Shown here: positions 1-14,543 of the stretch, one piece after another
How positions within the stretch are numbered: position 1 is the first letter of the stretch
Layout: each line of letters opens with the position of its first letter
Source: Thermoanaerobaculia bacterium
GTDB lineage: Bacteria; Acidobacteriota; Thermoanaerobaculia; Multivoradales; Multivoraceae
Assembly: GCA_022822365.1 (NCBI GenBank)
Contig: JAJEBV010000043.1
Location: 42,811 to 106,810, forward strand
Direction of reading: 5' to 3'
DNA length: 64,000 nucleotides
Notes under the pieces: model-generated
What the model was told of the DNA's origin: nothing
Database searches by the model: none
Seen by the model: only the letters and a program-made list of their open reading frames with translations
Translations under genes and position numbers: made by a program

Positions 1-1
1 C

Positions 2-2536
2 CCGAAGGGCACGGTGACCTACCTCCACCACCCGGGCGTCGTCGTCGACGTGGCGGCCGGGTCGGGGACGCGGCTCGCCTTCTCGACTCCCCACGGCGAG
101 TTCGACCTGCGGCCGTCCGAGCTCCGGATCGGCGAGGAACTCTCCTTCCTCGACGGCGCAGTGCTGGCCGACCGGGTGGCGCCGGCGGAGCCGTTGTCCT
201 CGCCCGAGGTCGAGAACGACTTCGCGACGATGACGAGCGGCGAGGACGGTGAGGTCTGGGCCGCCTGGACCGCTTACCGCGACGGCGGCGTCTCGATCGT
301 GGCAAGGCGCTTCGACGGCTCGGTCTGGCAGCCCGCCATCCAGGTCACAGACGAGCCGGGCGACCGCCTGATGCCGAAACTCGGGCGCGACGGCCGGGGC
401 CGCCCCTGGGTCGTCTGGTCCGAGCAGGTGGACGGCAACTTCGACCTCTACGGCCGCTACCTGCAACACGCCGCCGACGGATCCTGGTCGGCAACCGAAC
501 GCCTGACCTACGCACCTCAGGCCGACGTCGAGCACGAGCTGGCGAGCGACGCGGAGGGCAACCTGTGGCTGGTCTGGCAGGGCTTCCGCGACGGCCGCTC
601 CGACATCTTCGCCCGCCGCCACGACGGCTCCCGCTGGTCGGCCGAAGGACCCGTCTCCACCTCCGCGGCCAACGACTGGACGCCCGCCGTCGCGGCCTGC
701 GGCGACGGTCGCGTCTACGTCGCCTGGGACACCTACGACCAGGGCAACTACGACATCCAGTTGCGGAGCTTCGCCGGCACCGGCTGGAGCGACGTGGTCC
801 CGGTCGCCGACACCCCCAAGTTCGAGGCCCACGTGTCGATCGCCTGCGACTCCCGCAACCGGCTCTGGGCCGCCTGGAACGAGAGCGGCTTCCAGTGGGG
901 CAAGGATTCTGGCTTCGAGATCTACAAGGAAGCGACGCGCCTCTACGAGTGGCGCACTCTCGCAGTAGCGGTGCTGGACGGCTTCCGCTGGCGGGTACCC
1001 GAAGCCGACGTGAACGAACTGCTCGAACGGGAACTGCCCGAGTACATCCCGGGCTTCAACGACCTGCCCGTGCTCCAGGCCGACGCCGACGGTCGGATGT
1101 GGCTGTTCTTCCGCCACCGCACGATCCGGGCGCGCGACACGCCGGACTTCACGCCGGCCCACCGCGCCGCCTGGCAGATCTTCGGCACGGCATACGTCGG
1201 CGGTGAATGGACCCGGCCGCTTCACCTGCCGTTCAGCCGCGGCCGCCAGGACGTGCGATGGGGACTGGCTTCGGACGGCCGGGGCAACCTGTTCGCGGCC
1301 TGGCCGACGGACAACCGGAACTCCGAGCAGTACCTCTTCGAGCACTCCTCGATCAACGCGGCGAAGCTGCCCTCACTGACCGGTGAAGCGACGCCGCCGC
1401 GACTCGTCGACCCGGAGACGCGCGCCTACACGACATACCCGGTGCATCCCAACGAGGCCGAGGACGTCGCGCGTATCCGCGCCTACACGATCGAGTCGGA
1501 GGGCCGGACCTACCGCATCTACCGGGGCGACACCCACCGCCACACCGAGTTCTCGCACGACGGCCTGAACGACGGCTCGCTGATGGAGGCCTACCGCTAC
1601 GCCCTCGACGCCGCCGAACTCGACTTCCTCGGCGTCAGCGAGCACAACAACCGCGGCGGCCAGGACATCGAGTACGTCAACTGGCTCCATCCCCAGATCG
1701 CCGACATCTTCCGGCTGCCTGGGAGCTTCGTGCCTGTCTACACCTACGAGCGCAGCATCAGCTACCCGGGCGGCCACCGGAACATCCTGTCCGCGAAGCG
1801 CGGCATCCCGACCCTGCCGATCACCGAGGCCGAGTCAGAGAGCGAAGAGGGCGCGGCGCGACTGTTCGCGTATCTGCGGGAGCACGACGCGATCTCGATC
1901 CCCCATACCTCGGCTACCGGCATGGGCACCGACTGGCGCGACAACGACCCCGAGGTCGAACCGCTGGTCGAGATCTACCAGGGCGATCGAACGTCCGCGG
2001 AGTACGAAGGGGCTCCCCGAGCAGCCACCCGCGAGAAACCGAGCGGCCAGCAGGGCGGTCTTCGGCCGGCCGGCTTCGTCTGGAACGCCTGGGCCAAGGG
2101 CTACAAGCTCGGCGTGCAGGCTGCCTCGGACCACATCTCGACCCACATCTCCTACGCCGCCACGATCGCTGAGGACTTCTCCGCCGAAGGCCTGCTCGAC
2201 GCGATGAGGAAGCGGCACTCCTACGCCGCGACGGACAACATCATCCTCGATTACCGGATGCGCGCGAACGGCCGGGAGTACCTCCAGGGCGACATCGCCG
2301 AGGTTTCGGGCCGCTTCGAACTCGTGGTCAAGGTGATCGGCACCGCCCGCATCGAGCAGATCGACATCATCCGCGACCAGACCTTCCTCTACAACCGCCA
2401 GAACCTCGAACAGGAGGTCGACCTGACCTTCGTCGACAGCGACGTGACGCCCGGCGAGCACTACTACTATGTGCGGGTGATCCAGAAGAATCGGGAGATC
2501 GCCTGGTCGTCGCCGATCTGGGTGACGGTCGAGTAA
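2..2536 (+). CDS. Large beta-propeller + PHP/CehA-McbA-like (DUF3604-related) metallohydrolase, probably 5'-partial
   Basis: Frame is open from base 2 (ORF track starts at GTG 14). Repeated propeller-type units (VWAAW, PWVVW, LWLVW, VYVAW, LWAAW) are followed by a metal-binding domain with GDTHRHTEFSHDG, GVSEH, GHRN, SIPH, EIYQG, ASDH and a C-terminal AWSSPIWV. Confidence 0.7.
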   Translation, partial: PKGTVTYLHHPGVVVDVAAGSGTRLAFSTPHGEFDLRPSELRIGEELSFLDGAVLADRVAPAEPLSSPEVENDFATMTSGEDGEVWAAWTAYRDGGVSIVARRFDGSVWQPAIQVTDEPGDRLMPKLGRDGRGRPWVVWSEQVDGNFDLYGRYLQHAADGSWSATERLTYAPQADVEHELASDAEGNLWLVWQGFRDGRSDIFARRHDGSRWSAEGPVSTSAANDWTPAVAACGDGRVYVAWDTYDQGNYDIQLRSFAGTGWSDVVPVADTPKFEAHVSIACDSRNRLWAAWNESGFQWGKDSGFEIYKEATRLYEWRTLAVAVLDGFRWRVPEADVNELLERELPEYIPGFNDLPVLQADADGRMWLFFRHRTIRARDTPDFTPAHRAAWQIFGTAYVGGEWTRPLHLPFSRGRQDVRWGLASDGRGNLFAAWPTDNRNSEQYLFEHSSINAAKLPSLTGEATPPRLVDPETRAYTTYPVHPNEAEDVARIRAYTIESEGRTYRIYRGDTHRHTEFSHDGLNDGSLMEAYRYALDAAELDFLGVSEHNNRGGQDIEYVNWLHPQIADIFRLPGSFVPVYTYERSISYPGGHRNILSAKRGIPTLPITEAESESEEGAARLFAYLREHDAISIPHTSATGMGTDWRDNDPEVEPLVEIYQGDRTSAEYEGAPRAATREKPSGQQGGLRPAGFVWNAWAKGYKLGVQAASDHISTHISYAATIAEDFSAEGLLDAMRKRHSYAATDNIILDYRMRANGREYLQGDIAEVSGRFELVVKVIGTARIEQIDIIRDQTFLYNRQNLEQEVDLTFVDSDVTPGEHYYYVRVIQKNREIAWSSPIWVTVE

Positions 2537-2538
2537 GG

Positions 2539-3294
2539 ATGGACGCAGTCTGGGTCCTGGTTTCGGCCGCGGTCGGCATCGGCTTCGTCCACACGCTGAT
2601 CGGCATCGACCACACGCTGCCGTTCGTCGTCCTCGGCAAGGCGCGCGGGTGGTCGCTCCGCCGGACGCTGTGGATCACCGGCCTGTGCGGCGGCGGGCAC
2701 GTCGCCTCGTCCGTCCTCCTGGGCGGCGCCGGCATCGGGATCGCGATCTTCGCCACCGGGCTCGACACAGGCGAGGGCTACCACTGGATGAGCGGGCGCG
2801 TTGGCGCCTTCGAGACGATCGAGGCGGTCCGCGGCGACCTGGCCGCCTGGGCGCTGGTGGCGTTCGGCCTGACCTATGCCGGCTGGTCGCTGGCCCGCAG
2901 ACGGCGGCGGCAGCGCCACGTCCACGCCCATGCCGGCGGGCTCGTCCATGCCCATGAACATCCCGAGGCGGCTGGCCACGAGCACCCCAGGGCTTCGGCT
3001 GCCGGGGTGGCCGGACTCACCGCCTGGAGCCTGTTCGTCATCTTCGTGCTCGGCCCCTGCGAACCGCTGATCCCGATCCTCATGGTGCCGGCCTTCCAGG
3101 TCGGCCTGTGGGCGGTGGTCCCGGTGACCGCGGCCTTCGGCGTGACGACGATCGCGACGATGGTGGGAGTCGTCGCCCTTGCCTACAGGGGCCTCGATCT
3201 CGTCCGGCTCCCTCGGCTCACGGCGCATGTACACACGCTGAGCGGCCTCGCCATCGCCGCCTCGGGGCTCGCCATGATGCTCTTCGCGATCTAG
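2539..3294 (+). CDS. His-rich Ni/Co transporter-like membrane protein (UreH/NicO/RcnA-like)
   Basis: About 6 hydrophobic segments, GFVHTLIGIDH motif, GHV in the second TM, central His-rich loop HVHAH...HAHEH...HEH, and LGPCEP motif. Starts 2 nt after the upstream stop. Confidence 0.7.
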   Translation: MDAVWVLVSAAVGIGFVHTLIGIDHTLPFVVLGKARGWSLRRTLWITGLCGGGHVASSVLLGGAGIGIAIFATGLDTGEGYHWMSGRVGAFETIEAVRGDLAAWALVAFGLTYAGWSLARRRRRQRHVHAHAGGLVHAHEHPEAAGHEHPRASAAGVAGLTAWSLFVIFVLGPCEPLIPILMVPAFQVGLWAVVPVTAAFGVTTIATMVGVVALAYRGLDLVRLPRLTAHVHTLSGLAIAASGLAMMLFAI

Positions 3295-3303
3295 CCGTCC
3301 GCC

Positions 3304-6300
3304 ATGGGCGCGCCGAATTTCCAGGTTCACGGCCACGACGACGGTCACGGCCACTCGCATAGCCACGGGCTGCTGCAGCGGATCGGCTACATCGCGCTCT
3401 GCGTCGCCGTCGGCGTCCTGTTGCTGCTCTACCTGCTCGGGGTCGTCCGCACCGTCGCCGGCATCGACCTGGCGCTCATCCTCACCCTGGTCGCTGGCTA
3501 TCCGCTCATCCGCCACGCGATCCTGGACCTGCTCCAGGGGCACTTCTCGTCCCACCTGACGATCGCCATCGCGGCCGGCGCAGCGGTCTGGATTGGCGAG
3601 TACTTCGCCGCCGCCGAGGTCATGTTCATCATGCTGATCGGCGAGGGGATCGAACACTGGACCGTCGATCGCGCCAAGGGCGCGATCGCCGGCTTCGTTG
3701 CCAGCCAGCCGGAGCAGGCGCGAGTGCTGCGCGACGGCGGCGAGGAGCTCGTCGCGCTGGAAGTGGTCGAGATCGGCGACGTGGTGCGGGTGCTCGCCGG
3801 CGAGCGCGTGCCGGTGGACGGGATGATCGAGCGCGGCGAGTCGTCCGTCGACCAGAGCAGCGTCACCGGCGAACCGCTGCCCGCCCAGCTCGGCGTCGGC
3901 GACGCGGTGTGGAGCGGCAGCCTGAACGAGTACGGCGTGCTCGACATCCGCTCCGAGCGAACCGGCAGCGACACGACCGTCGCCCGCATCGCCAGCCTGA
4001 TCGAGGACGCGCAGAGCCGGCGGGCGCGCGTCGTCCGCACGGCGGACCGGCTGGCCCGGTACTTCCTGCCCGCGGTGCTGGTCGCGGCCGGCGGCATCTA
4101 CCTGTTCACCGGCGAGATGATGCGCACGGTCGCGGCCTTGATCGTCGCCTGTCCCTGCGCCCTGGTGCTCGCGACGCCGGCGGCCATGGCTTCCGCGATT
4201 GCGCGGCTGGCGCGCGAGGGCGCCCTGGTCAAGGGCGGCGACGTCATCGAGTCGCTGTCGCGCATCGACGCCTGCGTGCTGGACAAGACGGGCACGCTGA
4301 CCTGCGGCCGTCCCGCGCTGACCGCGATCGCGCCCGCTGGCGGCATGGCCGAGGATCGCCTGCTCCGGCTGGCGGCGAGCGCCGAACTGACTTCCGAGCA
4401 TCTGCTCGGCCGGGCGCTCGTCTCCGAAGCCCGGGAGCGGCAACTCGACCTCTCGGAGCCGGAGAACTTCAGGCTCCATCCCGGCCGCGGCGTGACGGCC
4501 ACCGTCGACGGGCACGAGATCGCGGTCGGCAACCAGGCGCTACTGGCGGAGGTCGTCGGCGAAGACCAGATCGGCGCCCTGGCCGACAGCGTGGTGCCCA
4601 CCCCGGGAAGTGGCGAAACGCGGCTCGCCGTCGCCGTAGACGGTGCGCTGGCCGGCGCGTTGGCCCTCGCCGATCCGCTGCGTGACGAAGCGACCGAAGC
4701 GGTCGCCGATCTGCGCCAGGCCGGCGTCGAGCCGATCGTCATGCTGACCGGCGACGCCGAGGGAACGGCGCGCACGATCGGCCGCCGGGCCGGCATCGAC
4801 CAGATCCAGGCGGAACTGCTGCCGGAAGACAAGGTGCGCCGGCTCGGCGAGCTCTCCCGAGGCGACCGCAACGTCCTCATGGTCGGCGACGGGATCAACG
4901 ACGCGCCCTCCCTCGCCGCCGCGTCCGTCGGCACAGCTTTCGGCCACGGCGCCGCCGACCTCTCGGCCGAGGCGGCCCAGGTCGTCCTGCTGCCCGACCG
5001 GCTCGACTACCTGGCGCCCCTGCTCCGCTATTCGCGGCGCGTCGTCGCCCGGATCCGCAGCAGCATCCTGATCTTCGCCTTCGGCATCAACTTCGTCGCC
5101 GTCGGCTTCGCCGCCTTCGGCTGGCTGCCTCCGACCGCGGCGGCGATCGTCCACCAGGCCGCCTCGCTGCTCGTCATCCTGAACTGCGTCCGGCTGCTCT
5201 ACGAAGGCCGGGCGGTGGCAGCCCGCGAAGACCGGGGCTTCGGCCGCTTCCGCCTTCTCGCCGGTCCGGTCGACGGGCTGGCCGCTGGCTGGAACGCCTT
5301 CAAAGCGGGCCGCCGCGAGACGGTTCATCGCCTCGAACACGCGCTCGAAGACAGTCCCGCGCGGATCCGGTCCGCGGCCCCCCGGCTACTGCGCGCGGCG
5401 CCGTTCGCGCTCGCCGCGGTCTGGGCCGCGAGCGGCCTGCGCATGATCGCTCCCCAGGAAGTCGGACTCGTGCAGCGCTTCGGCCAACACGTCGGCGGTG
5501 AACTCGATCCGGGGCTACACCTGCGCTGGCCGTGGCCGATCGAACGGGTGACCAGGGTCGAACCGGACCGCCTGCGGATGGCGGCGGTCGGCTCGCCCCG
5601 GGAAGCCGGTGCCGGCGAGACCGGCGCCGCGGCGAGCTACGAGTGGAACGTCCGCCACGCCGGTTTCGACGACACGCCGCCGCTCGAACGGCTGATGCTG
5701 ACCGGCGACGAGAACCTGGTGGAGGTCGCGGCCCGGATCCACTACCGGGTCGCCGACGCCGCCGCCTTCGCCTTCGCCACGGCCGATCCGGCGCTCCTGG
5801 TCGAGACGAGCGCGGAGCGGTCGCTGCGCACCGTGCTCGCCGGTCACTCGCTCGACGACGTGCTGACCGGCAAGCGCGACGGCATCGAGACGGCCTGGCA
5901 CACCCATCTCTCGGCGCTGCTCGAGGGCCTCGGCGCCGGCGTCGAGGTCGTGAGCGCGACCGTGCAGGACGCCCACCCGCCGCTCGACGTCGTCGACGCC
6001 TTCCGCGACGCGGCGAGCGCGCTCGAGGAACGGGAGACCCTGATCGACGAGGCGGAGGGCTACGCGCTCGAGCGCCTGCCGATTGCCCGCGGCGAGGCGC
6101 GCCGGCAACTCCTCGAAGCCGAGGCCTACCAGAACCGCCGCGTCGAGGCCGGCCGCGGCGAGAGCGAACGCTTCGAACTGCGGGCCGGAGCGTACCGGCG
6201 CGCGAACGACCTGCACCGCTTCCGGCTCCAGCTTCAGACGATCGAAAGCTCGCTCGCCGGCAAACCGAAACTGATCACCGACGCGACCGGCGGTCGCAAG

Positions 6301-6390
6301 CGCTTCGTCTTCGTGGACGAAACGCCGGACCGCCTCCTCGACGTCTTCGTTCCTCCACCGGGTCCGTCCCAGAACGAGGTAGAGCAATGA
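3304..6390 (+). CDS. P1B-type heavy-metal translocating ATPase fused to a C-terminal HflK-like SPFH domain
   Basis: His-rich N-terminus, TGE, ACPCALVLATP, DKTGTLT, SEH, MLTGD and GDGINDAP. After the last ATPase TM there is an extra TM, then SPFH motifs (EVGLVQRFG, PGLHLRWPWPIERV, MLTGDENLVEV, QDAHPP, EAEGY..ERLPIARGEA). Confidence 0.9.
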   Translation: MGAPNFQVHGHDDGHGHSHSHGLLQRIGYIALCVAVGVLLLLYLLGVVRTVAGIDLALILTLVAGYPLIRHAILDLLQGHFSSHLTIAIAAGAAVWIGEYFAAAEVMFIMLIGEGIEHWTVDRAKGAIAGFVASQPEQARVLRDGGEELVALEVVEIGDVVRVLAGERVPVDGMIERGESSVDQSSVTGEPLPAQLGVGDAVWSGSLNEYGVLDIRSERTGSDTTVARIASLIEDAQSRRARVVRTADRLARYFLPAVLVAAGGIYLFTGEMMRTVAALIVACPCALVLATPAAMASAIARLAREGALVKGGDVIESLSRIDACVLDKTGTLTCGRPALTAIAPAGGMAEDRLLRLAASAELTSEHLLGRALVSEARERQLDLSEPENFRLHPGRGVTATVDGHEIAVGNQALLAEVVGEDQIGALADSVVPTPGSGETRLAVAVDGALAGALALADPLRDEATEAVADLRQAGVEPIVMLTGDAEGTARTIGRRAGIDQIQAELLPEDKVRRLGELSRGDRNVLMVGDGINDAPSLAAASVGTAFGHGAADLSAEAAQVVLLPDRLDYLAPLLRYSRRVVARIRSSILIFAFGINFVAVGFAAFGWLPPTAAAIVHQAASLLVILNCVRLLYEGRAVAAREDRGFGRFRLLAGPVDGLAAGWNAFKAGRRETVHRLEHALEDSPARIRSAAPRLLRAAPFALAAVWAASGLRMIAPQEVGLVQRFGQHVGGELDPGLHLRWPWPIERVTRVEPDRLRMAAVGSPREAGAGETGAAASYEWNVRHAGFDDTPPLERLMLTGDENLVEVAARIHYRVADAAAFAFATADPALLVETSAERSLRTVLAGHSLDDVLTGKRDGIETAWHTHLSALLEGLGAGVEVVSATVQDAHPPLDVVDAFRDAASALEERETLIDEAEGYALERLPIARGEARRQLLEAEAYQNRRVEAGRGESERFELRAGAYRRANDLHRFRLQLQTIESSLAGKPKLITDATGGRKRFVFVDETPDRLLDVFVPPPGPSQNEVEQ

Positions 6391-7349
6391 CCCACCACGA
6401 CCATCAGCAACACCACGACCACCACGACGAGGCTCACCGCCACGACGGCGGCGACGGCCACAAGCACCCGCCGCGCCGTGCCACGTCCTGGTGGCGGGCC
6501 GGTCTGGCCGTGCTGGCGCTCGTCGCGCTGGCCCGGACCGTCTTCGTCGTGCCGGAGACCGAGAGTGCGATCGTCACCCGCTTCGGCAAGCCGGTCCGGA
6601 CGATCGAGGATCCGGGCCTCAAGCTGAAGTGGCCGATCGACCGGCGGCTCCGTTTCGACAACCGGGTGCTCCTCTACGATCCCGCGCCGGCCGAGTTCCT
6701 GACCCAGGACAAGAAGAACCTGGTCGTCGATACGGCGGTCGTCTGGCGGATCGCCGACCCGGCGCGCTTCCTGGAGACGATCGGCGACATCTCCGGCGCC
6801 GAGATGCGGCTGCACGACGTGGTCTGGGCCGGCCTGGCGGCCGCCCTCGGCCGCACGGAACTCTCGCAGCTCGTTTCCACGAAGCCGAAGCATCTGCGCA
6901 TCGAGGAGGTCGCGGCCGAGGTCCGCGAGTCCGCGGTTGCCGTCTCCCTCCCCCAACTCGGAGTCGAGATCCTCGAGGTCCAGCTCACCCGCCTGAGCTT
7001 CCCGGAGCAGAACCTGGAGTCCGTCTTCGCCCGCATGCGGGCGGAGCGCGAACGGATCGCCAAGGAGTACCGCGCCCAGGGCGAGGAACAGGCGATGATC
7101 ATCCGCGCCGAAGCCGACCGGGATCGGGATCTGATCCTCGCGGACGCCTACCGTGAGGCGGAGATCCTCCGCGGCCAGGGCGACGCCGAGGCCGCCGGCA
7201 TCTACGGCGACGCCTACCGGCAGGACCCGTCGCTCTACCGCTTCCTGCGCACCCTGGAGTCCTACGAGTCGATTCTCGACGACCAGACGACCGTCATCCT
7301 GTCGGCGGACTCGGAGCTCTTCTCGCTGCTGGGCGGAGGCGCCGAATGA
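6387..7349 (+). CDS. hflC: HflC-like SPFH protein with His-rich N-terminal tail
   Basis: ATG 6387 overlaps the ATPase stop (ATGA). AIVTRFGKP, PGLKLKWP, FLTQDKKNLVVD, VFARMRAERERIAKEYRAQGEE and YRFLRTLESY are HflC hallmarks. The first 27 residues contain 11 His. Likely a paralog rather than the FtsH-associated copy. Confidence 0.85.
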   Translation: MTHHDHQQHHDHHDEAHRHDGGDGHKHPPRRATSWWRAGLAVLALVALARTVFVVPETESAIVTRFGKPVRTIEDPGLKLKWPIDRRLRFDNRVLLYDPAPAEFLTQDKKNLVVDTAVVWRIADPARFLETIGDISGAEMRLHDVVWAGLAAALGRTELSQLVSTKPKHLRIEEVAAEVRESAVAVSLPQLGVEILEVQLTRLSFPEQNLESVFARMRAERERIAKEYRAQGEEQAMIIRAEADRDRDLILADAYREAEILRGQGDAEAAGIYGDAYRQDPSLYRFLRTLESYESILDDQTTVILSADSELFSLLGGGAE

Positions 7350-8278
7350 GACGTCGCGCCATCCCGGCTGCGGCGCTGACCCTGGCGCTCATGTGGCTGG
7401 CCTGGGGCGTCTACTTCGTCGCGCCCGACGAGGAGGCCGTGGTCCGCGTTCTCGGCAGGGCGAGCGCGACGCCGGCCGGGCCGGGCGTGCACTGGAACTG
7501 GCCGCGGCCCGTCGGCCGCGTGGACAAGCTGAAGGTGCGCGAAGCGAAGCGGTTGACGCTCGGCTTCGCGGCGGCCGACCGCGTGCTCGGCGGCGACGCG
7601 ACGCCGGCCGAGGCGCGCTGGTTGACCGGCGACCGCAACGTCGTCCACGTGCGGCTCGTCGTCCTCTACGCGATCCACGATCCGCTCGCCTACTCTCTGC
7701 GCTTCGCGAACGTCGAGTCGCTGCTCGAGGCGAGCGGTCGCAGCGCCCTGCTCGAAGTGGTCGCCGGCATGGGCGTCGACGAGCTGCTGACGACCGGCAA
7801 GGTGGCGGTCCAACAGAGCGTGCAGGCCGCATCGCAGGAGCTGTTCGATCGCTTCGGGACCGGCGTCACCGTCCTGTCCGCAAGCCTCGAGGGAGTCAGC
7901 CCGCCGAGCCTCGTGCGCGAGGCGTTCAACGACGTCGCCAGCGCGCGCGAGGATCGCGACCGCCTGATCCGCGAGGCGGAGAGCTACCGCAACGAGGTCG
8001 TCCCGGTGGCGCGCGGCGAGGCGCGCGCTCTCGTCACCGGGGCCGAGAGCTTCCGCACCGCCGAAGTCGAACGGGCGGCCGGTGAAGCGGACCGCTTCCG
8101 CTCGATCGCGAACGCCGACCAGGGCGCCCGTGCCGAGATCCGCACGCGGACCTATCTCGAGACGATGGAGCGGGTCCTTCCCCGGATGCGGAAGACGATC
8201 CTCGAGCCCGGCCAGAGCACGATCGACATCGACTTCCTCCGCCGCGAGCTGACGCCCGGGTCGAACGGCCGGCCGTGA
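7346..8278 (+). CDS. hflK: HflK-like SPFH protein
   Basis: ATGA overlap with the hflC-like gene. One N-terminal TM, PGVHWNWPRP, LTGDRNVV, VSPPSLVREAFNDVASARED, EAESYRNEVVPVARGEA and RTYLETMERVL. Confidence 0.85.
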   Translation: MRRRAIPAAALTLALMWLAWGVYFVAPDEEAVVRVLGRASATPAGPGVHWNWPRPVGRVDKLKVREAKRLTLGFAAADRVLGGDATPAEARWLTGDRNVVHVRLVVLYAIHDPLAYSLRFANVESLLEASGRSALLEVVAGMGVDELLTTGKVAVQQSVQAASQELFDRFGTGVTVLSASLEGVSPPSLVREAFNDVASAREDRDRLIREAESYRNEVVPVARGEARALVTGAESFRTAEVERAAGEADRFRSIANADQGARAEIRTRTYLETMERVLPRMRKTILEPGQSTIDIDFLRRELTPGSNGRP

Positions 8279-8754
8279 GAGTGAGCCGCAACGTCGGCGC
8301 GACGGCGCTGACCGTCGTCGTGCTCGCGGGCGGCCTGGTCGTGGCGCTGCGCGATCGGCTGCCGGAGCGCGCGACGGATGCCGGCGATCCCAGCGACGTC
8401 TTCTGGGAGATGGTCGACGCGAGCCGCGAGGGCGCTGCGGATGCCTGGCTCGACCTCTTCGCCGGGGAGGTGCGCGAACAACTGGAGACCGTGCGCGACG
8501 AGATGGGTCATGCCGCCTTCGAGCAGTACCTCCGCGGTCGGGTCGCCGGCCTCAAGGGGGTCGCCGTGACCGGCAGGGAGGATCTCGGCGAGGTCGTGCG
8601 CCTGGACGTCGAGTACGTCCGGGAGGCGAGCTACGAGACGCAGTCCCTGGACGTTCGAAGAACCCGGGGACGCTGGCGAATCGTCGCGCTCGGTCCGACG
8701 CACGAGCGCGAGCCGCCGGTTCCCTACGGCACGCCCGTCGGCCCGACAGAGTGA
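8275..8754 (+). CDS. Small membrane-anchored protein of unknown function (possibly NTF2-like soluble domain)
   Basis: GTGA overlap with the hflK-like stop, N-terminal TM, helix-then-strand pattern ending in GRWRIV, and host-like codon usage. Confidence 0.65.
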   Translation: MRVSRNVGATALTVVVLAGGLVVALRDRLPERATDAGDPSDVFWEMVDASREGAADAWLDLFAGEVREQLETVRDEMGHAAFEQYLRGRVAGLKGVAVTGREDLGEVVRLDVEYVREASYETQSLDVRRTRGRWRIVALGPTHEREPPVPYGTPVGPTE

Positions 8755-8773
8755 CGGCGGGAGGAAGGAACGA

Positions 8774-9967
8774 ATGAGAAAGCTCGCAATCGCTCTCCTT
8801 GCGTTCTTTCGCCGGACCTCGCTGGCGGTGCGCAAGCTCCGCGGGCAGTCCGAGGACGACGTCGCCTCGCAGCGGGTCGTCACCGGCCGCTCCTGGGACG
8901 AGTTCTGCGACACGCTGAAGGCCGCCGGTGCGTCGCTGAACTTCCCGGGGACACCCCGTGACGCCTTCAACCAGGCGGAGGGCTACCGCTACCTGAGCCG
9001 GCTGGCCCGGGCGGGGCTCATGGCCTTCGTCGAGCACGCCGACCCGCGGGCGCCGGTGCTGCACCGGGTCGCCAACGAGACGGTCAAGCTTGGCTCCGAC
9101 AACCCGGACAACCACTACCTGACGGCCGCGCTCTCGGGCGCGTACGAGTACCGGATCACGGGACGGCGCAACACGGTCGCCTACCTCGGCTTCGGCACCC
9201 AGGCCGGCCACTACGGCCAGGGCGGCGGCCTGCCGCCGACCGGCTACGTCGAGGCGGCGGAACTCGAGATGGACGGCGAAGGCCGCTTCGAACTCGTTCT
9301 CAGTTGCGAAGAACAGGAGGGCAACTGGTTGCCGATGAAGCCCGACACGGGGATGCTCATCGTGCGCCAGACCTTCCTCGACCGGCGCAGCGAGATCCCG
9401 GCCGAATTGCACATCGAGCGGATCAACTGCGCGCCCGAGGAGAAACGTCCGTCGCCGCTGACTCCCGCACAGGTCGACGAAGGGCTGCGCTCGGCCAGCA
9501 CGCTGGTCGCCGGCGCCTCGCTGCTGTTCGCGAAGTGGGCCCGCGACTTCCAGAAGCACTCGAACCAACTTCCCCGATTCGACCAGGAGACGTCGAACCA
9601 GGCGGGAGGCGATCCCAACATCGCCTACTACCACTCCCACTGGCGGCTGGCCGGGGACGAAGCGCTGGTCATCGAGGCTGTGCCGCCGGAGTGCGAGCAC
9701 TGGAACTTCCAGCTCAACAACTACTGGATGGAGTCGCTGGACTACCGCTACCACACGATCCACACGAACAAGCACCTCGCTCGGTACGAACCGGACGGTT
9801 CGGTGCGCCTGATCGTGGCCCACGAGGATCCCGGGCTCCCGAACTGGCTCGACACCGCCGGCCACACCTCAGGCACGATGTCCTTCCGCTGGATCCGGGC
9901 CGAGGAACACCCCGAGCCGGCGACCCGGGTCGTCAAGCTGGCCGAACTGTCGGCGCGCCGCCGCTGA
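8774..9967 (+). CDS. DUF1214-domain protein
   Basis: Strong RBS. Motifs AEGYRYLSRL, KLGSDNPDNHY, WNFQLNNYWMESLDY, EPDGSVRLIVAHEDPG and NWLDTAGH are typical of DUF1214 proteins found next to sulfotransferases. Confidence 0.75.
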   Translation: MRKLAIALLAFFRRTSLAVRKLRGQSEDDVASQRVVTGRSWDEFCDTLKAAGASLNFPGTPRDAFNQAEGYRYLSRLARAGLMAFVEHADPRAPVLHRVANETVKLGSDNPDNHYLTAALSGAYEYRITGRRNTVAYLGFGTQAGHYGQGGGLPPTGYVEAAELEMDGEGRFELVLSCEEQEGNWLPMKPDTGMLIVRQTFLDRRSEIPAELHIERINCAPEEKRPSPLTPAQVDEGLRSASTLVAGASLLFAKWARDFQKHSNQLPRFDQETSNQAGGDPNIAYYHSHWRLAGDEALVIEAVPPECEHWNFQLNNYWMESLDYRYHTIHTNKHLARYEPDGSVRLIVAHEDPGLPNWLDTAGHTSGTMSFRWIRAEEHPEPATRVVKLAELSARRR

Positions 9968-9970
9968 CAA

Positions 9971-11230
9971 ATGCCGAAGCGGGTTGTCGAGACACCGACG
10001 GACTACGAGCGGCCGTACCGGCCCCTCCCGGTAGCGCTCCTGAACGCGGCCGGGCGGGCCGCACGCCGCGTCGGGATCGACGGGCAGGTCGACGTCGACT
10101 CGATGGTCGCGAAGGCCCGAAGGAGAACCGGCCTGTCCAGCTTCGGCGACGAGTGGTTCATGGAACCCCTGTCCGTCCTCGTCCGCTCAATCAACGAGGA
10201 GGCCGACCTTACGCTTCTGGGCCGGACGATCCAGCGGCGACGGATCGAGGGAGCGCTGGCGACGCGCCTGCGGGTCGAGGAGCTCCTTCGCCAGCGGCCG
10301 GAGATCCGGGACATCGACCTCGGCCGGATCGTCGTGATCGCCGGCCTGCAGCGCACCGGCACGACCACGCTGCACCGGCTGATCGCTTCCCACCCCGAGA
10401 TGCGCGCCGTCGCGGCCTGGGAGGGGTTGAATCCGATGCCCCTGCCGCGTGAGGAGCCGGGCGATCCTCACGCCCGAATCCGACAGGCCCTCGTCGCGGA
10501 GCGGGCAATCGCCTACCTGGCGCCCGCCTTCTTCGCCGTCCATCCCGCCGAGCACGACGCTCCGGAGGAGGACGTGCTGCTGCTCGACGTGTCCTTCATG
10601 AGCCAGTCCGCGGAGGCGACCATGCACGTGCCCACCTATGCCCGCTGGCTGGAGGGCCGGGACCATACGCGCGCGTACGAGGAGTTCCGCACCCTGCTTC
10701 AGGTCCTGCACTGGCAGCACCCGCGTCTCAACTGGGTGCTCAAGACGCCGCATCACATGGAGTACCTGGATGTCGTCCTCGAGGTCTTCCCGACCGCCAC
10801 AATCGTGCAGACGCACCGCGATCCGCTGAAGACGATCCCCTCCTTCTGCAGCATGGTCGCCCATGGCCACGGCCTCTTCAGCGACCGGGTCGACCCGCAC
10901 GAGATCGGTTCGCACTGGTTGGCCAAGACGCGCCGCCTGGTCGAGTTGACCGCCCGCGCCCGGGCGGCTGCGGACCCCCGCCGCTTCGTCGACGTGTCCT
11001 ACTACGACCTGGTCGACGATCCGATGGCCGAACTGGCCAAGGTCTACGAGCGGACCGGCATCCCTTTCGGCCCGGACGCCCTCCAAGCCGCCGAGAGAAC
11101 CGCGAGCCGCAACGTGCAGCACCGCTTCGGACGCCACGTCTACGATGCGAGTAGCTTCGGTCTGACCCGGGAGGCGATCGAGAACAGCATGGCGGCCTAC
11201 CGGCAGCAGCACGGCATTCCCATCGAGTAG
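9971..11230 (+). CDS. Sulfotransferase family protein
   Basis: PAPS-binding loop GLQRTGTTTLH, WVLKTPHH, and THRDP...S motif. Confidence 0.85.
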   Translation: MPKRVVETPTDYERPYRPLPVALLNAAGRAARRVGIDGQVDVDSMVAKARRRTGLSSFGDEWFMEPLSVLVRSINEEADLTLLGRTIQRRRIEGALATRLRVEELLRQRPEIRDIDLGRIVVIAGLQRTGTTTLHRLIASHPEMRAVAAWEGLNPMPLPREEPGDPHARIRQALVAERAIAYLAPAFFAVHPAEHDAPEEDVLLLDVSFMSQSAEATMHVPTYARWLEGRDHTRAYEEFRTLLQVLHWQHPRLNWVLKTPHHMEYLDVVLEVFPTATIVQTHRDPLKTIPSFCSMVAHGHGLFSDRVDPHEIGSHWLAKTRRLVELTARARAAADPRRFVDVSYYDLVDDPMAELAKVYERTGIPFGPDALQAAERTASRNVQHRFGRHVYDASSFGLTREAIENSMAAYRQQHGIPIE

Positions 11231-11260
11231 ATAGAGACCGCGTAGAGGAGACACCGAAAC

Positions 11261-12286
11261 GTGAAGAAGCTCTTCAAGGTCCTGCGCAAGGCGGTCAGGG
11301 ACCGTGCCGCCGAGCCGGCGGAGATCGAGCCTCTTGCCGACTCCGTGCGGCTCGAGGGCAAGACCTGCCTGGTCACGGGCTCCAACAGCGGGCTCGGCAA
11401 GGCCGTCGCCATCGACCTGGCGAGGCGCGGCGGCCACGTCCTGATGGCCTGCCGCGGCGGCCACCCCGACGCGGGCGAAGAGGTCCGGGCCGCCTCCGGC
11501 TCCGAACGGGTCGAGATGCTGCGGGTCGATCTCTCCGACATGCGTTCGGTCCACCAGCTCTGCGACGAATTGCATGACCGGGAAACGACGATCGACATCG
11601 CCGTCCTCAACGCCGGTGTCGTGCCGCGCCGCGCGCGCCGGACGCCGCAGGGCTTCGAGCTCATGTTCGCGGTCCACTTCCTGGCCAACCGCGTCCTCGT
11701 CGACCGCTGGCTGAAGGACGGCACGGTCCGTCCGGCCGCGAGGCTCGAGGATTCGCCCCGCATCATCCTCGTCTCCTCCGACGCCCACCGCTCCGCCGAA
11801 CCGGTCGACTTCGACCGTTTCGGCGCCTTCACGGACTACGGCGTCCGGGACGGAATCAAGCAATACGGTGCGAGCAAGCTCGTCGTCTGCACCTACGCGA
11901 CCGAACTCTCGCGTCGCCTGAACCGCGGCGGCGAGGGGTACGTCGCCGTGCACTCGCTCTGCCCCGGCCCGGTCAACACCGCCATCGCGCGGGATGCGCC
12001 GTGGTTCCTGCAGCCTCTCGTGGCGCCGATGATGAAGCTCTTCTTCCTGACGCCGGAGAAGGCCGCCAGACCCGTGAGCTACCTCTGCTGCGCCGACGAC
12101 GCCGGCCAGCGAAGCGGCATCTACCTGCACATGCTGCGCGAGAAGCGCCCGTCCGAGCACGCCACGGACCCGGCCAACGGGGCCAGGTTGTGGGAAGCGA
12201 GTGAAGTGCTGCTCGAGACCCAAACGCCACCGACACCGGGTGCGCCGGCGCCCCCGCCGGCATCCGGCGCGAAGCGCCGGCTCTGA
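11261..12286 (+). CDS. SDR oxidoreductase (retinol dehydrogenase-like)
   Basis: VTGSNSGLG, NAGV, VSS, catalytic YGASK, and CPGPVNT. Confidence 0.9.
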   Translation: MKKLFKVLRKAVRDRAAEPAEIEPLADSVRLEGKTCLVTGSNSGLGKAVAIDLARRGGHVLMACRGGHPDAGEEVRAASGSERVEMLRVDLSDMRSVHQLCDELHDRETTIDIAVLNAGVVPRRARRTPQGFELMFAVHFLANRVLVDRWLKDGTVRPAARLEDSPRIILVSSDAHRSAEPVDFDRFGAFTDYGVRDGIKQYGASKLVVCTYATELSRRLNRGGEGYVAVHSLCPGPVNTAIARDAPWFLQPLVAPMMKLFFLTPEKAARPVSYLCCADDAGQRSGIYLHMLREKRPSEHATDPANGARLWEASEVLLETQTPPTPGAPAPPPASGAKRRL

Positions 12287-12306
12287 ACACTCCGCCGCGC
12301 GCGCTC
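12238..12306 (+). repeat. REP-like dispersed repeat, copy overlapping the SDR C-terminus
   Basis: GGGTGCGCCGGCGCCCCCGCCGGCATCCGGCGCGAAGCGCCGG...CACTCCGCCGCGC is near-identical to 41701-41772 and to the reverse complement of 45745-45795. Confidence 0.8.
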
Positions 12307-12317
12307 CAGCGAACACC

Positions 12318-13316
12318 ATGACCTACCGACCTGGATCCGGCCTCTCGAAGGCCTTCCACCACATGTGGGAGCTCTGCTCGCGCAAGCCGATGGCGGAGCG
12401 TGTCGACATGTCGGGCAGAAAGGTGATCGTCACCGGCGCGACGCCCGGGTCGATCGGCTACCAGGTCGCCGGAACGCTTGCCGCCTGGGGCGCCGACGTG
12501 GCGGTCACCTGCCCGCGCAACAGCGACGCCGCCAGGGAGACCTTGCTGGGTGACCTGCGGGACGCCGGGCACCTTCCTGGCGGCGTCGAGGCGCACCGCC
12601 TCGATCTCGCCGACCCCCGAAGCGTCGCGGACTTCGCCGCCTGGTACCGCGAGACGTCCGGCGGCCGCCTGGACGTGCTGATCAACAACGCCGGCATCCT
12701 GCGCGACGTGCTCTGGCGCTGGCGCGAGCGCAGGGTCTCCGCCGACGGCTTCGAGATCCACTGGCGCACGAACTACCTCGGCACGTTCCACCTGACGCGC
12801 CTGCTGCTGCCGATGCTGCTCGAGTCCGGCCGGCGGAGCGGAGACGCGCGGGTGGTCAACGTCTCCTCGCACCAGCACGACAAGGGCAGCAACGACCGTC
12901 TCTTCGCTCCCCCGGACCGGTTGGACTCCTGGACCGCCTACGGCCAGTCCAAGCTGGGGCTGATCCACCACGCGTTCGAGCTGCAGCGCCGCTACGCCGC
13001 GGACGGCAACCTCCGATCGGCCGCCGTGCACCCTGGTTCCGCGTACTCGAACATGACCTTCGGCTGGCAGGACGAGCCCCGGTTGCTCAGGCGGATGAAG
13101 CGCCTGGCCACGCCCCTGGCGCCGATGATCCTCCTGACGCCGGCGCAGGCAGCCCAGACCACGATCAAGTGCGCCACGGACCCGAACCTGGAAGGCGGCC
13201 ACTACCATGAACGCTGCGCCACAGCCGAACCCATCCCCGACGCCCGGGACGAAGCAGCGTCACGACGCCTCTGGGAAGAAACGGACCGCTGGTTCCGGTC
13301 GCTCGGGGAGGAATAG
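12318..13316 (+). CDS. SDR oxidoreductase (retinol dehydrogenase-like)
   Basis: VTGATPGSIG, NNAG, NVSS, YGQSK and VHPG. ATG 12318 is preferred to the ORF-track start, which overlaps the upstream gene. Confidence 0.85.
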   Translation: MTYRPGSGLSKAFHHMWELCSRKPMAERVDMSGRKVIVTGATPGSIGYQVAGTLAAWGADVAVTCPRNSDAARETLLGDLRDAGHLPGGVEAHRLDLADPRSVADFAAWYRETSGGRLDVLINNAGILRDVLWRWRERRVSADGFEIHWRTNYLGTFHLTRLLLPMLLESGRRSGDARVVNVSSHQHDKGSNDRLFAPPDRLDSWTAYGQSKLGLIHHAFELQRRYAADGNLRSAAVHPGSAYSNMTFGWQDEPRLLRRMKRLATPLAPMILLTPAQAAQTTIKCATDPNLEGGHYHERCATAEPIPDARDEAASRRLWEETDRWFRSLGEE

Positions 13317-13337
13317 GCAGGAACAGGAGGCCCTTAG

Positions 13338-13787
13338 ATGTTCAAGCACGCCATCGATTCCGAACCGGTAGAGATCGCCGCCCCCATCGAGGTGGCCTGG
13401 GACCTCCTCGTCGATCTCGACCGCTACCACGAGTGGAATCCCTTCGCCCGGACCTACAGGAAGACCGATGTCCGCGTCGGCTCCACCATCCACTTCGACG
13501 TCAAGCTGGACCGCTACAACCGGAAGCAGACCGAGCGCATCGCGATCGTCGAACCGCCGACGCGGCTGGCCTGGACCACCAACGTCGCCCTCGGACTCGT
13601 CAAGGCGCTGCGCGTCCAGCGACTCGAGAAGCGAGGCGAGACGAGCTGCACGTACTTCAACACGGACACCCTCGAAGGGCCGCTGGCGCCCGTGGCCCGG
13701 CTCCTGTTCGGCGGCGCCATGCACCGCGGCTTCGCCGCCGTCGGCAGGGCGCTGAAGCAGACGGCGGAGGAGCGGCACGGCGGGTAG
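13338..13787 (+). CDS. SRPBCC (START/polyketide cyclase-like) ligand-binding protein
   Basis: AGGAGG RBS, EIAAPIEVAWDLLVDLDRYHEWNPF, and C-terminal helix ALKQTAE. Confidence 0.85.
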   Translation: MFKHAIDSEPVEIAAPIEVAWDLLVDLDRYHEWNPFARTYRKTDVRVGSTIHFDVKLDRYNRKQTERIAIVEPPTRLAWTTNVALGLVKALRVQRLEKRGETSCTYFNTDTLEGPLAPVARLLFGGAMHRGFAAVGRALKQTAEERHGG

Positions 13788-13991
13788 CGGGTCGGCAACT
13801 GTCCCCGACCGTCGTCCCGTTTCTCCAACCAGCTGCACCCAGAATCGGGGAGTGGTTTCGCTCCGATTCCGGATCGTGCCGATCCCGAGTCCGGCTCGCT
13901 CCGACGTTCGAGCATGGACTCCGTCCCGAACCCACCCGAGCAGGAGCGCAGCGCACCGTGGCCGGCGGGTCCCCGGGGGACTCGACATCCC

Positions 13992-14543
13992 TCATGGTTC
14001 GGAAGTGGCCGAACTAGGACCGCGGGAGGACTCCGCCGGCGTCTCTCGCAAGATCTCGGAGATATCGGCGTTTCCTGAGGAAGGGAAGAGCACTCGGATC
14101 ACATCATCCCGTTCGAGCCTCGTCTTCGGAGGCCCGAGGTCTCTCCGAAGTTGGAAGATGAAGTCGGCCATCAGCTTCTGGGGCTCCTCGATCTTGCTCC
14201 TCCCCTCTTCGGACAGAGCCGGGTACAGCGATGCCGCAAACATCTGTTTGCTGAAGGAACGGATGAGATCATCAGAAGCTGTGATCGCGAACTCGTACAG
14301 CACGAGATTGTACTCGGGTGAATCAGCAGATCCTGCTAGGGCTTGGACTGGATCTTTGCCCACACGAGTCGCCGCCAACGTAGCTGCCCAAGGCCGGAGG
14401 AGCTCCCGGTAGAGCGGGATCCTCGCCTCGCGGAGCGCCCTCGCTTCCTCCCGGCGCTTCTGCGCTCGGCGAGCCAGCCACTGATTGACCATAGTTACCA
14501 GCCCACCGCCCAGAGCCCCTACGACTAAGCTCATCACATCCAT
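13992..14543 (-). CDS. Hypothetical protein with N-terminal TM helix
   Basis: GGAGG RBS upstream of ATG 14543, hydrophobic N-terminus followed by a charged helix, and atypical codon usage at the island edge. Confidence 0.65.
   Translation of the reverse strand: MDVMSLVVGALGGGLVTMVNQWLARRAQKRREEARALREARIPLYRELLRPWAATLAATRVGKDPVQALAGSADSPEYNLVLYEFAITASDDLIRSFSKQMFAASLYPALSEEGRSKIEEPQKLMADFIFQLRRDLGPPKTRLERDDVIRVLFPSSGNADISEILRETPAESSRGPSSATSEP

Follow-up and report, generated by a model that had tools for sequence, protein, structure and literature searches.

The stretch of DNA analysed here, 64,000 nucleotides (nt) of a Thermoanaerobaculia bacterium from contig JAJEBV010000043.1 (hereafter, the window), carries a gene cassette in which a heavy-metal pump of the P1B-type ATPase family and an HflK-type SPFH protein are encoded as a single polypeptide. 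This gene is followed by genes for an HflC-type protein, a second, free HflK-type protein, and a small membrane-anchored protein. With a probability that we put at roughly 0.6, these genes would constitute a conserved four-gene module in which a dedicated SPFH ring tethers efflux pumps. The locus had previously been singled out by a model that saw only the letters and their open reading frames (the sequence-only reading), and we note below how its claims fared.

The fusion gene (3304-6390) is one frame encoding 1028 amino acids (aa). Pfam domains cover the protein in the order E1-E2_ATPase (residues 134-304), Hydrolase (321-540), and Band_7 (714-920). In NCBIfam, both halves score above the family cut-offs: TIGR01525 (heavy-metal P-type ATPase) with 539.4 bits (cut-off 346.25) and TIGR01933 (hflK) with 175.6 bits at residues 713-995 (cut-off 159.4). 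The covalent link between a P1B ATPase and HflK, as claimed by the sequence-only reading, was thus confirmed. Solved P1B pumps (CopA, ZntA, and sCoaT) align with the ATPase part through its last helix, which ends at residue 632. We modeled the fusion with AlphaFold2 from a 16-row alignment (mean predicted local distance difference test, pLDDT, 70.4). The model places eight long pump helices where they are expected, and model and alignment together predict both the eight helices and the cytoplasmic C-terminus of P1B pumps; a hydropathy-based helix count was set aside, as it missed known helices. After the pump, the pLDDT drops below 50 over about residues 636-685 (in detail, 636-660 and 665-681), a low-confidence linker of ~40-55 residues. 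A helix at 674-709 comes next in the model, then SPFH strands starting at 712 and a long helix spanning 894-946. These results show an architecture that runs from the pump through a flexible cytoplasmic linker and one membrane helix to the SPFH domain. P1B pumps have a cytoplasmic C-terminus, and CDF transporters likewise end in the cytoplasm. Since one extra helix follows the cytoplasmic end of the ATPase, the SPFH domain is predicted to be periplasmic, as in E. coli HflK; the CDF fusions described below fit the same topology rule because of their cytoplasmic ends. Public records name such proteins “FtsH protease activity modulator HflK” or “Cu+-exporting ATPase”, each name hiding half of the protein.

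The fusion is real and old. When residues 640-1028 were searched among proteins of 565-1799 aa, 117 of the 120 listed clusters had the E1-E2_ATPase, Hydrolase, and Band_7 architecture, and the names of the listed clusters include Acidobacteriota, Holophagales, Blastocatellia, Bryobacteraceae, and Armatimonadetes. We also inspected 401 acidobacterial genomes, sampled evenly over the phylum and including two unpublished ones (G152 and G049) on which no individual claim depends. An HflK-type match in a frame of at least 1000 aa was present in 21 of them: all ten genomes of the window's genus, none of the 29 from the rest of the same class, and 11 genomes of other classes. One further genome (G393; L050:6323-9449) has the fusion gene split into overlapping frames of 749 and 373 aa, its HflK part containing either a frameshift or a sequencing error. 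DNA of the window was found in 23 sequencing runs from 11 studies, and every run with a stated habitat is a sponge or marine metagenome; eight of the 23 carry a coded organism name only, and two may be the source itself. Contigs from two independent sponge-metagenome runs, belonging to different studies, extend from position 4878/4879 to beyond 8750, spanning the junction between pump and HflK as well as the three downstream genes. An assembly artefact or a gene-call error is ruled out by the cluster architectures, the genus-wide presence, and these junction-spanning contigs.

In all 20 acidobacterial loci that we compared, in addition to the window, genes for an HflC-type protein and a free HflK come after the fused HflK, and neither the architecture nor its neighborhood is peculiar to this assembly. 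Twelve of the 20 loci are of the ATPase type, with 38-45% identity to the window outside the genus. An ArsP_1 permease (PF03773) is fused to HflK in five scanned proteins of 728-785 aa, with a sixth alike by BLAST, and a Cation_efflux (CDF) domain takes the same position at one locus and in one database protein. At another locus (L057:7216-12974, genome G376), HflK carries a polytopic domain without a family match, and genes for HflC, HflK, and a P1B-like ATPase that is not fused come next. The gene of this ATPase overlaps that of the free HflK by 4 nt, and its transmembrane helix 4 (TM4) has T-P-T in place of Cys-Pro-Cys (CPC). In Planctomycetota, a CDF::Band_7 fusion with an adjoining Band_7 gene was found in 2 of 151 genomes sampled. 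From this comparison across lineages, we take the recurring unit to be an exporter::HflK fusion plus HflC, with a second HflK in the acidobacterial loci. As far as a comparison of genes can show it, the same SPFH module is joined to three unrelated exporter families (P1B ATPase, CDF, and ArsP-type), and the link is therefore unlikely to be accidental. A full-text literature search turned up no description of a P-type ATPase, CDF, or ArsP transporter with an SPFH or HflK domain attached to it; supplementary domain tables may bear on this. The architecture as such is already present in public annotation under half-names, and what is new are the ArsP and CDF fusions, including those in Planctomycetota, the finding that the fused pump is the sole P1B pump detected in its genome, and its CPC/HQ signature (see below).

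The two partner proteins also score above their family cut-offs. The 320-aa protein matches TIGR01932 (hflC) with 219.8 bits (cut-off 134.4) and has 11 His among its 34 N-terminal residues. Its previous description as a His-tailed HflC is accurate for the genus, where all ten genomes have a His-containing tail (4-14 His); the tail is absent from distant cassettes. The 310-aa protein, correctly called a free HflK, matches TIGR01933 with 186.1 bits (cut-off 159.4), and the hflC-type gene lies between the fused and the free HflK. These two HflK parts are 31.9% identical to each other, and 25.6% and 29.8% identical to the housekeeping HflK of the genome. The latter belongs to a separate hflK-hflC pair on another contig (C50), whose genes are adjacent and overlapping and score above the cassette proteins, with 277.5 and 258.3 bits. 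Overall, nine Band_7 matches were counted in the genome, whose SPFH genes fall into five separate loci including the cassette, the remaining ones being a stomatin-like gene beside a ClpP/NfeD-like gene, one other SPFH gene, and a flotillin. Each of the ten genus genomes has three HflK-type matches, and housekeeping hflKC pairs are also found in six cassette-bearing genomes of other lineages.

To place the cassette proteins, we used two trees that agree, a quick one with 70 rows and a careful one with 66, the latter without L057 and L058 (long branches) and with E. coli HflK and HflC added. In the careful tree, HflK and HflC are split with support of 100/100, and the cassette HflC form one clade (100/98). 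The free HflK also form one clade across ATPase-, ArsP-, and CDF-type cassettes (98/96), as do the ten ATPase-fused HflK rows (94/99). The housekeeping HflK, including that of E. coli, lie behind a 93/96 branch with all fused and free cassette copies outside it, and orthology of the cassette HflK with the housekeeping HflK thus failed in the 66-row tree. Housekeeping HflC rows are not a single clade in this tree, because the HflC of E. coli branches off outside every acidobacterial one. Judged by these trees, the cassette SPFH proteins are shown to be dedicated paralogues separate from the housekeeping HflK and HflC. Two outcomes named by the sequence-only reading as refuting it, a fusion confined to this assembly and SPFH proteins clustering with the housekeeping ones, were thus not observed. 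In that reading, a free HflK besides the fused one would let only some K positions carry the pump. The free HflK is an old and distinct paralogue common to all three transporter types, and not just a version of the fused HflK without its cargo.

The genome encodes exactly one full-length FtsH, and the fused HflK and its partners could conceivably dock it, with the pump lying inside the proteolytic chamber or shielded from it and its abundance set by regulated degradation. We consider such control of turnover rather unlikely. HflK and HflC are FtsH modulators by definition, and the three cassette proteins each score above the NCBIfam cut-offs. A P-type ATPase, MgtA, is named among known substrates of FtsH (PMC13220708), and a review on PacL names protection from degradation as a scaffold role (PMC13460109). 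Moreover, an Arg column that is invariant in the 12 housekeeping HflK, near a published FtsH contact (HflK Arg191, PMC12048511), is kept in 9 of 10 ATPase-fused HflK and in 0 of 14 free HflK. This column is, however, lost from most ArsP- and CDF-fused HflK domains (kept in 2/5 and 1/2, respectively), and its mapping to Arg191 is ambiguous, the nearest Arg residues of the RefSeq E. coli HflK being 185 and 193. A dedicated HflC and a second HflK would also be needless if the fusion only joined the housekeeping complex, and the cassette clades stand apart from the housekeeping ones. The absence of ftsH, hflX, and hfq from the window, pointed out previously, was borne out: the window lies on contig C47, ftsH on C49, and hflX on C44, and hfq did not turn up in the genome, whose completeness is 95.8%. 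For ftsH, this absence says little, because E. coli hflKC likewise does not lie beside ftsH.

According to the tethering model, which we favor, the fused HflK, the dedicated HflC, and the free HflK would, by homology to E. coli, form a heteromeric SPFH ring at the periplasmic side of the inner membrane. There, the assembly is described as 24 alternating HflK and HflC subunits (PMC12048511). Because the fused HflK would sit in such a ring, several pump copies would be held in one membrane microdomain, making up an efflux platform that may stabilize or regulate the pump. In this genus, the cytoplasmic His-rich tails of HflC, the pump, and the neighboring permease could gather Zn, Co, or Ni type cations at the pump entry, and the NTF2-like small protein would be a fourth, periplasmic component. 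The cassette arrangement suggests that HflK scaffolds can organize transporters as well as FtsH.

The sequence-only reading had gone further, proposing that the ring closes into a periplasm-facing cage, inside which the tethered pumps release metal for confinement, buffering, or hand-over. The SPFH domains are indeed predicted on the metal-release side of the pump, all three fused transporter families export metals or metalloids, and the coiled-coil and C-terminal parts are kept, matching nearly full hflK and hflC profiles. Still, we regard a closed cage as improbable. The small periplasmic protein lacks conserved His, Cys, and Met residues in the alignment of its orthologues, which makes a role as metal chaperone unlikely, and it is missing from ArsP and CDF cassettes. 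Neither a periplasmic metal-binding protein nor an outer-membrane exporter is conserved beside the cassette in the neighborhoods of the loci compared, and a sealed chamber without an exit would be expected to saturate. The flexible linker could reach either side of the ring, so that the sequence is compatible with pumps inside as well as outside it. Finally, recent E. coli structures are described as open, asymmetric assemblies rather than sealed cages (PMC12048511).

We next turn to the pump part and its likely substrate. The best solved relative is the P1B-4 pump sCoaT (PDB 7qbz), with 337.5 bits, ahead of CopA and ZntA. The alignment spans residues 8-632, including a similar His-rich N-terminus, and a His occupies the same place in the last helix. 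A hallmark of P1B-4 pumps is HEGxT in the last helix. In TM4, their hallmark is SPC (PMC13460109). The window protein has CPC in TM4 (SPC in sCoaT) and HQ(A)AS in the last helix (HEGST in sCoaT, DTGAT in ZntA), and the P1B-4 (Co/Zn/Cd) motif test failed, with CPC and HQAAS at the aligned positions. The P1B-2 (Zn/Cd/Pb) motif test failed as well: CPC is present, and the “DTG” of ZntA aligns with “HQA”, without an Asp. This exclusion rests on the motif, since TIGR01512 is above its cut-off (451.3 vs 313.5 bits). For P1B-1 (Cu+), the profile TIGR01511 stays below its cut-off (389.8 bits, cut-off 397). The P1B-6 hallmark N-X18-H-N-X-(S/T) between TM5 and TM6 (PMC13460109) is similar to but different from the N-X20-H-Q-A-A-S of the window protein, which thus failed this test too.

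The same signature recurs among the relatives. DKTGT and CPC are present in the window protein and in all 117 fused relatives, and the HQ motif in 112 of the 117, compared with 0 of 78 plain P1B ATPases. This control set came from a generic ATPase-motif search with at least 599 matching stretches, from which 80 loci were kept (79 plain ATPases and one fusion, L077), and has no census value. CPC in TM4 together with HQ in the last helix defines a P1B subgroup that is almost always fused: 113 of the best 120 relatives of the ATPase part are fused to HflK, and the other seven comprise five that are apparently truncated or frameshifted and two that are apparently unfused, with CPC and HQ kept. The genome has no TIGR01525 match besides the fused pump. 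The pump N-terminus of close relatives carries 5-7 His, that of distant ones few or none; judging from the sequences compared, the His-rich segments of the pump, HflC, and the 251-aa protein encoded upstream are features of this genus. By coordination chemistry, His-rich sites prefer Zn, Co, or Ni-type cations over Cu(I).

The small 159-aa protein has no Pfam or NCBIfam match. Its model has a mean pLDDT of 81 (above 90 in the domain) and matches NTF2-like folds (E-values of 1e-4 to 1e-3, TM-scores of 0.3-0.67), and two relatives show weak DUF4878 matches. Given an N-terminal hydrophobic helix and the charge distribution in most orthologues, its domain would face outside, probably into the periplasm. 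BLAST and a profile of the family both detected it in all 12 ATPase-type loci, and the profile in none of the eight other cassette loci, with a single copy in the genome; in L045, it lies ~3 kilobases away rather than directly after the free HflK. The family comprises 327 representative clusters. One protein of 505 aa (P0372) was considered as a Rosetta-stone link between Band_7 and the small protein and rejected: it reads as the start of HflC, an internal piece of HflK, and the small protein, and is probably a collapsed or frameshifted call.

The 251-aa protein, which had been labeled a Ni/Co-type transporter, matched no Pfam or NCBIfam family at E-values up to 10, NicO/RcnA included. Its own family comprises no fewer than 1551 clusters; of the 120 listed, nine are called “nickel/cobalt exporter” and 14 “sulfite exporter TauE/SafE” by one source, and a few carry PF13386. 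The protein may thus be an RcnA/TauE-like exporter, the earlier label being plausible from these names and lacking a family profile. The gene adjoins the cassette in 6 of the 12 ATPase-type loci.

Several observations weigh against the tethering model. We infer the formation of a ring from homology. A Planctomycetales metagenome-assembled genome encodes an ATPase::Band_7 frame of 1180 aa (L077:5734-9276), with CPC in TM4 and HE rather than HQ in the last helix, which has no HflC or HflK adjacent and a secretin gene downstream. The two close ATPase relatives that appear unfused, as well as the Arg column shared by the housekeeping and the ATPase-fused HflK, also count against it. With CPC and N-X20-H-Q-A-A-S, the pump fits no named P1B subtype, and no metal-responsive regulator was found among the neighboring proteins scanned against Pfam. 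The His tails, being confined to this genus, cannot explain the module in general. Lastly, the hint of expression that speaks for the model is a weak one and comes from a relative: contigs from two RNA libraries of different studies cover parts of its cassette, one of them (2794 nt, ~90% identical) reading from the 251-aa gene through the pump to the HflK helix. Contigs from RNA libraries can hold DNA, and a single transcript is not implied.

A broader proposal, which we hold only tentatively and with more doubt than belief, is that HflK/HflC-type rings have a second, FtsH-independent class of clients. In at least two phyla, a three-paralogue ring would have metal(loid) exporters of three unrelated families as its covalent clients; such a ring would carry the only P1B pump of a sponge symbiont, with up to a dozen His-rich tails serving as a metal-collecting antenna.

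The features of the locus are given in Table 1. The five genes, their coordinates, and their overlaps (ATGA at 6387, ATGA at 7346, and GTGA at 8275) agree with those of the sequence-only reading on inspection of the sequence and translations. Their tight linkage was also upheld, while the tight string proved longer than five genes, with a 948-aa gene 2 nt upstream and a DUF1214 gene 19 nt downstream; the plus-strand gene string is unbroken over window positions 1-13300.

Table 1 Features of the cassette and the gene preceding it, in window coordinates
Feature	Position	Strand	Remarks
Upstream secreted DUF3604/PHP-like gene, 3' part	1..2536	+	840 of 948 codons in window; start 308 nt upstream of window
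251-aa polytopic membrane protein, His-rich loop	2539..3294	+	Family label open to RcnA/TauE-like exporter, candidate only
P1B-type metal ATPase part of fusion, residues 1-632	3304..5199	+	His-rich N-terminus, 8 membrane helices, TM4 CPC, DKTGT, last-helix HQ
Cytoplasmic linker from pump to HflK helix, about residues 633-689	5200..5370	+	Predicted, low confidence; alignment poorly conserved
HflK-type part of fusion	5371..6390	+	Membrane helix, SPFH domain, long coiled-coil helix, C-terminal tail
Dedicated HflC paralogue, 320 aa	6387..7349	+	TIGR01932; cytoplasmic His-rich N-terminal tail, residues 1-34
Free HflK paralogue, 310 aa	7346..8278	+	TIGR01933; short N-terminus, one membrane helix
Small N-terminally anchored protein, 159 aa	8275..8754	+	NTF2-like (DUF4878-like) domain, probably periplasmic

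The 948-aa upstream protein has a signal-peptide-like N-terminus and a weak DUF3604 match in Pfam. Its gene stops 2 nt before the start of the 251-aa gene at 2539 and is probably co-transcribed with the cassette. Homologues of this gene are linked to the cassette in some lineages only, adjoining it in L045 and L059-L061. A full DUF3604 gene (C47:40463-42268) is divergent from this secreted DUF3604-like gene (window 1-2536), and such a pair, with a secreted protein of ~945 aa, recurs at C45:18419-22250. On the 3' side, the DUF1214 gene starts 19 nt after position 8754 and is followed by a sulfotransferase gene (9971-11230) and two short-chain dehydrogenase genes; these four genes (window positions 8774-13316) extend the plus-strand string, with successive gaps of 19, 3, and 30 nt and a final overlap. 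Of the three further genus loci inspected, two (L059 and L060) also have the DUF1214 and sulfotransferase genes, which were not found in any other lineage. In two other lineages, sulfatase genes lie directly 3' of an ATPase-type cassette (L045:3312-6215 and L048:12402-14042). Over window positions 1-14000, the plus strand has no terminator-like site, minus-strand ones occur at chance level, and no promoter-like site was detected. A genomic island was rejected as well, as composition shows no break over these positions (GC content 0.66-0.74).

This setting raises the option that the pump delivers metal to secreted metalloenzymes encoded alongside it (DUF3604/PHP-like proteins and sulfatases) rather than serving detoxification, which we judge very unlikely. 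Besides the secreted DUF3604-like gene that ends 2 nt upstream of the operon, a second lineage (L045) has homologues adjoining its cassette, a third (L050) has a DUF3604-like gene in the vicinity, and the sulfatase genes 3' of the cassette in L045 and L048 would fit as well. However, DUF3604 matches number 13 in this genome, among them at least four more paralogues of the long type, so that the adjacency may be due to chance; the cassettes of L044 and L046 have unrelated neighbors; and a pump that is the only one of its type in the genome argues for general efflux.

The role of SPFH rings for clients beyond AAA proteases is an open question, and the identification of such clients is usually indirect. 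In the proteins described here, the client is written into the polypeptide, and if the model is true, these fusions lend themselves directly to studying the effect of an SPFH ring on its client. As in the HflK/HflC-FtsH system of E. coli, an SPFH cage or nautilus-like assembly, the cassette proteins pass the family cut-offs, the K and C genes are adjacent and overlapping, and one N-terminal membrane helix goes with a predicted periplasmic SPFH domain and a coiled coil. Unlike the E. coli pair, the cassette comprises three components (fused K, C, and second K), a transporter is covalently attached to one K, FtsH is only a conceivable client, and the cassette clades are separate, with a housekeeping pair also present in the genome. 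Stomatin and prohibitin form SPFH rings that act on channels and on the m-AAA protease, that is, on membrane-protein clients. The client of the cassette differs in being a metal exporter and in being fused to the scaffold. Compared with sCoaT, the pump shares the His-rich N-terminus and the last-helix His, and differs in CPC instead of SPC, in HQ(A)AS instead of HEGST, and in the extra C-terminal helix and SPFH domain.

The closest functional parallel is the PacL-Ctp platform of Mycobacterium tuberculosis. According to PMC13460109, these “effluxosomes” consist of co-encoded single-helix scaffolds that stabilize and cluster P1B pumps, one scaffold having a cytoplasmic His/Asp metal-binding motif. 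The cassette, too, combines a P1B pump with co-encoded single-helix scaffolds, and we propose that the His tail of HflC parallels the His/Asp motif of PacL. The scaffolds themselves are non-homologous: Pfam scans of the five proteins (two of them at E-values up to 10) returned ATPase, Band_7, and one stray weak match, and no homology to PacL. The cassette also differs in that its link is covalent and the bulk of its scaffold is periplasmic. With PacL-Ctp as a precedent for scaffolded P-type ATPase platforms, the cassette would extend the idea of a scaffolded efflux platform beyond actinobacteria.

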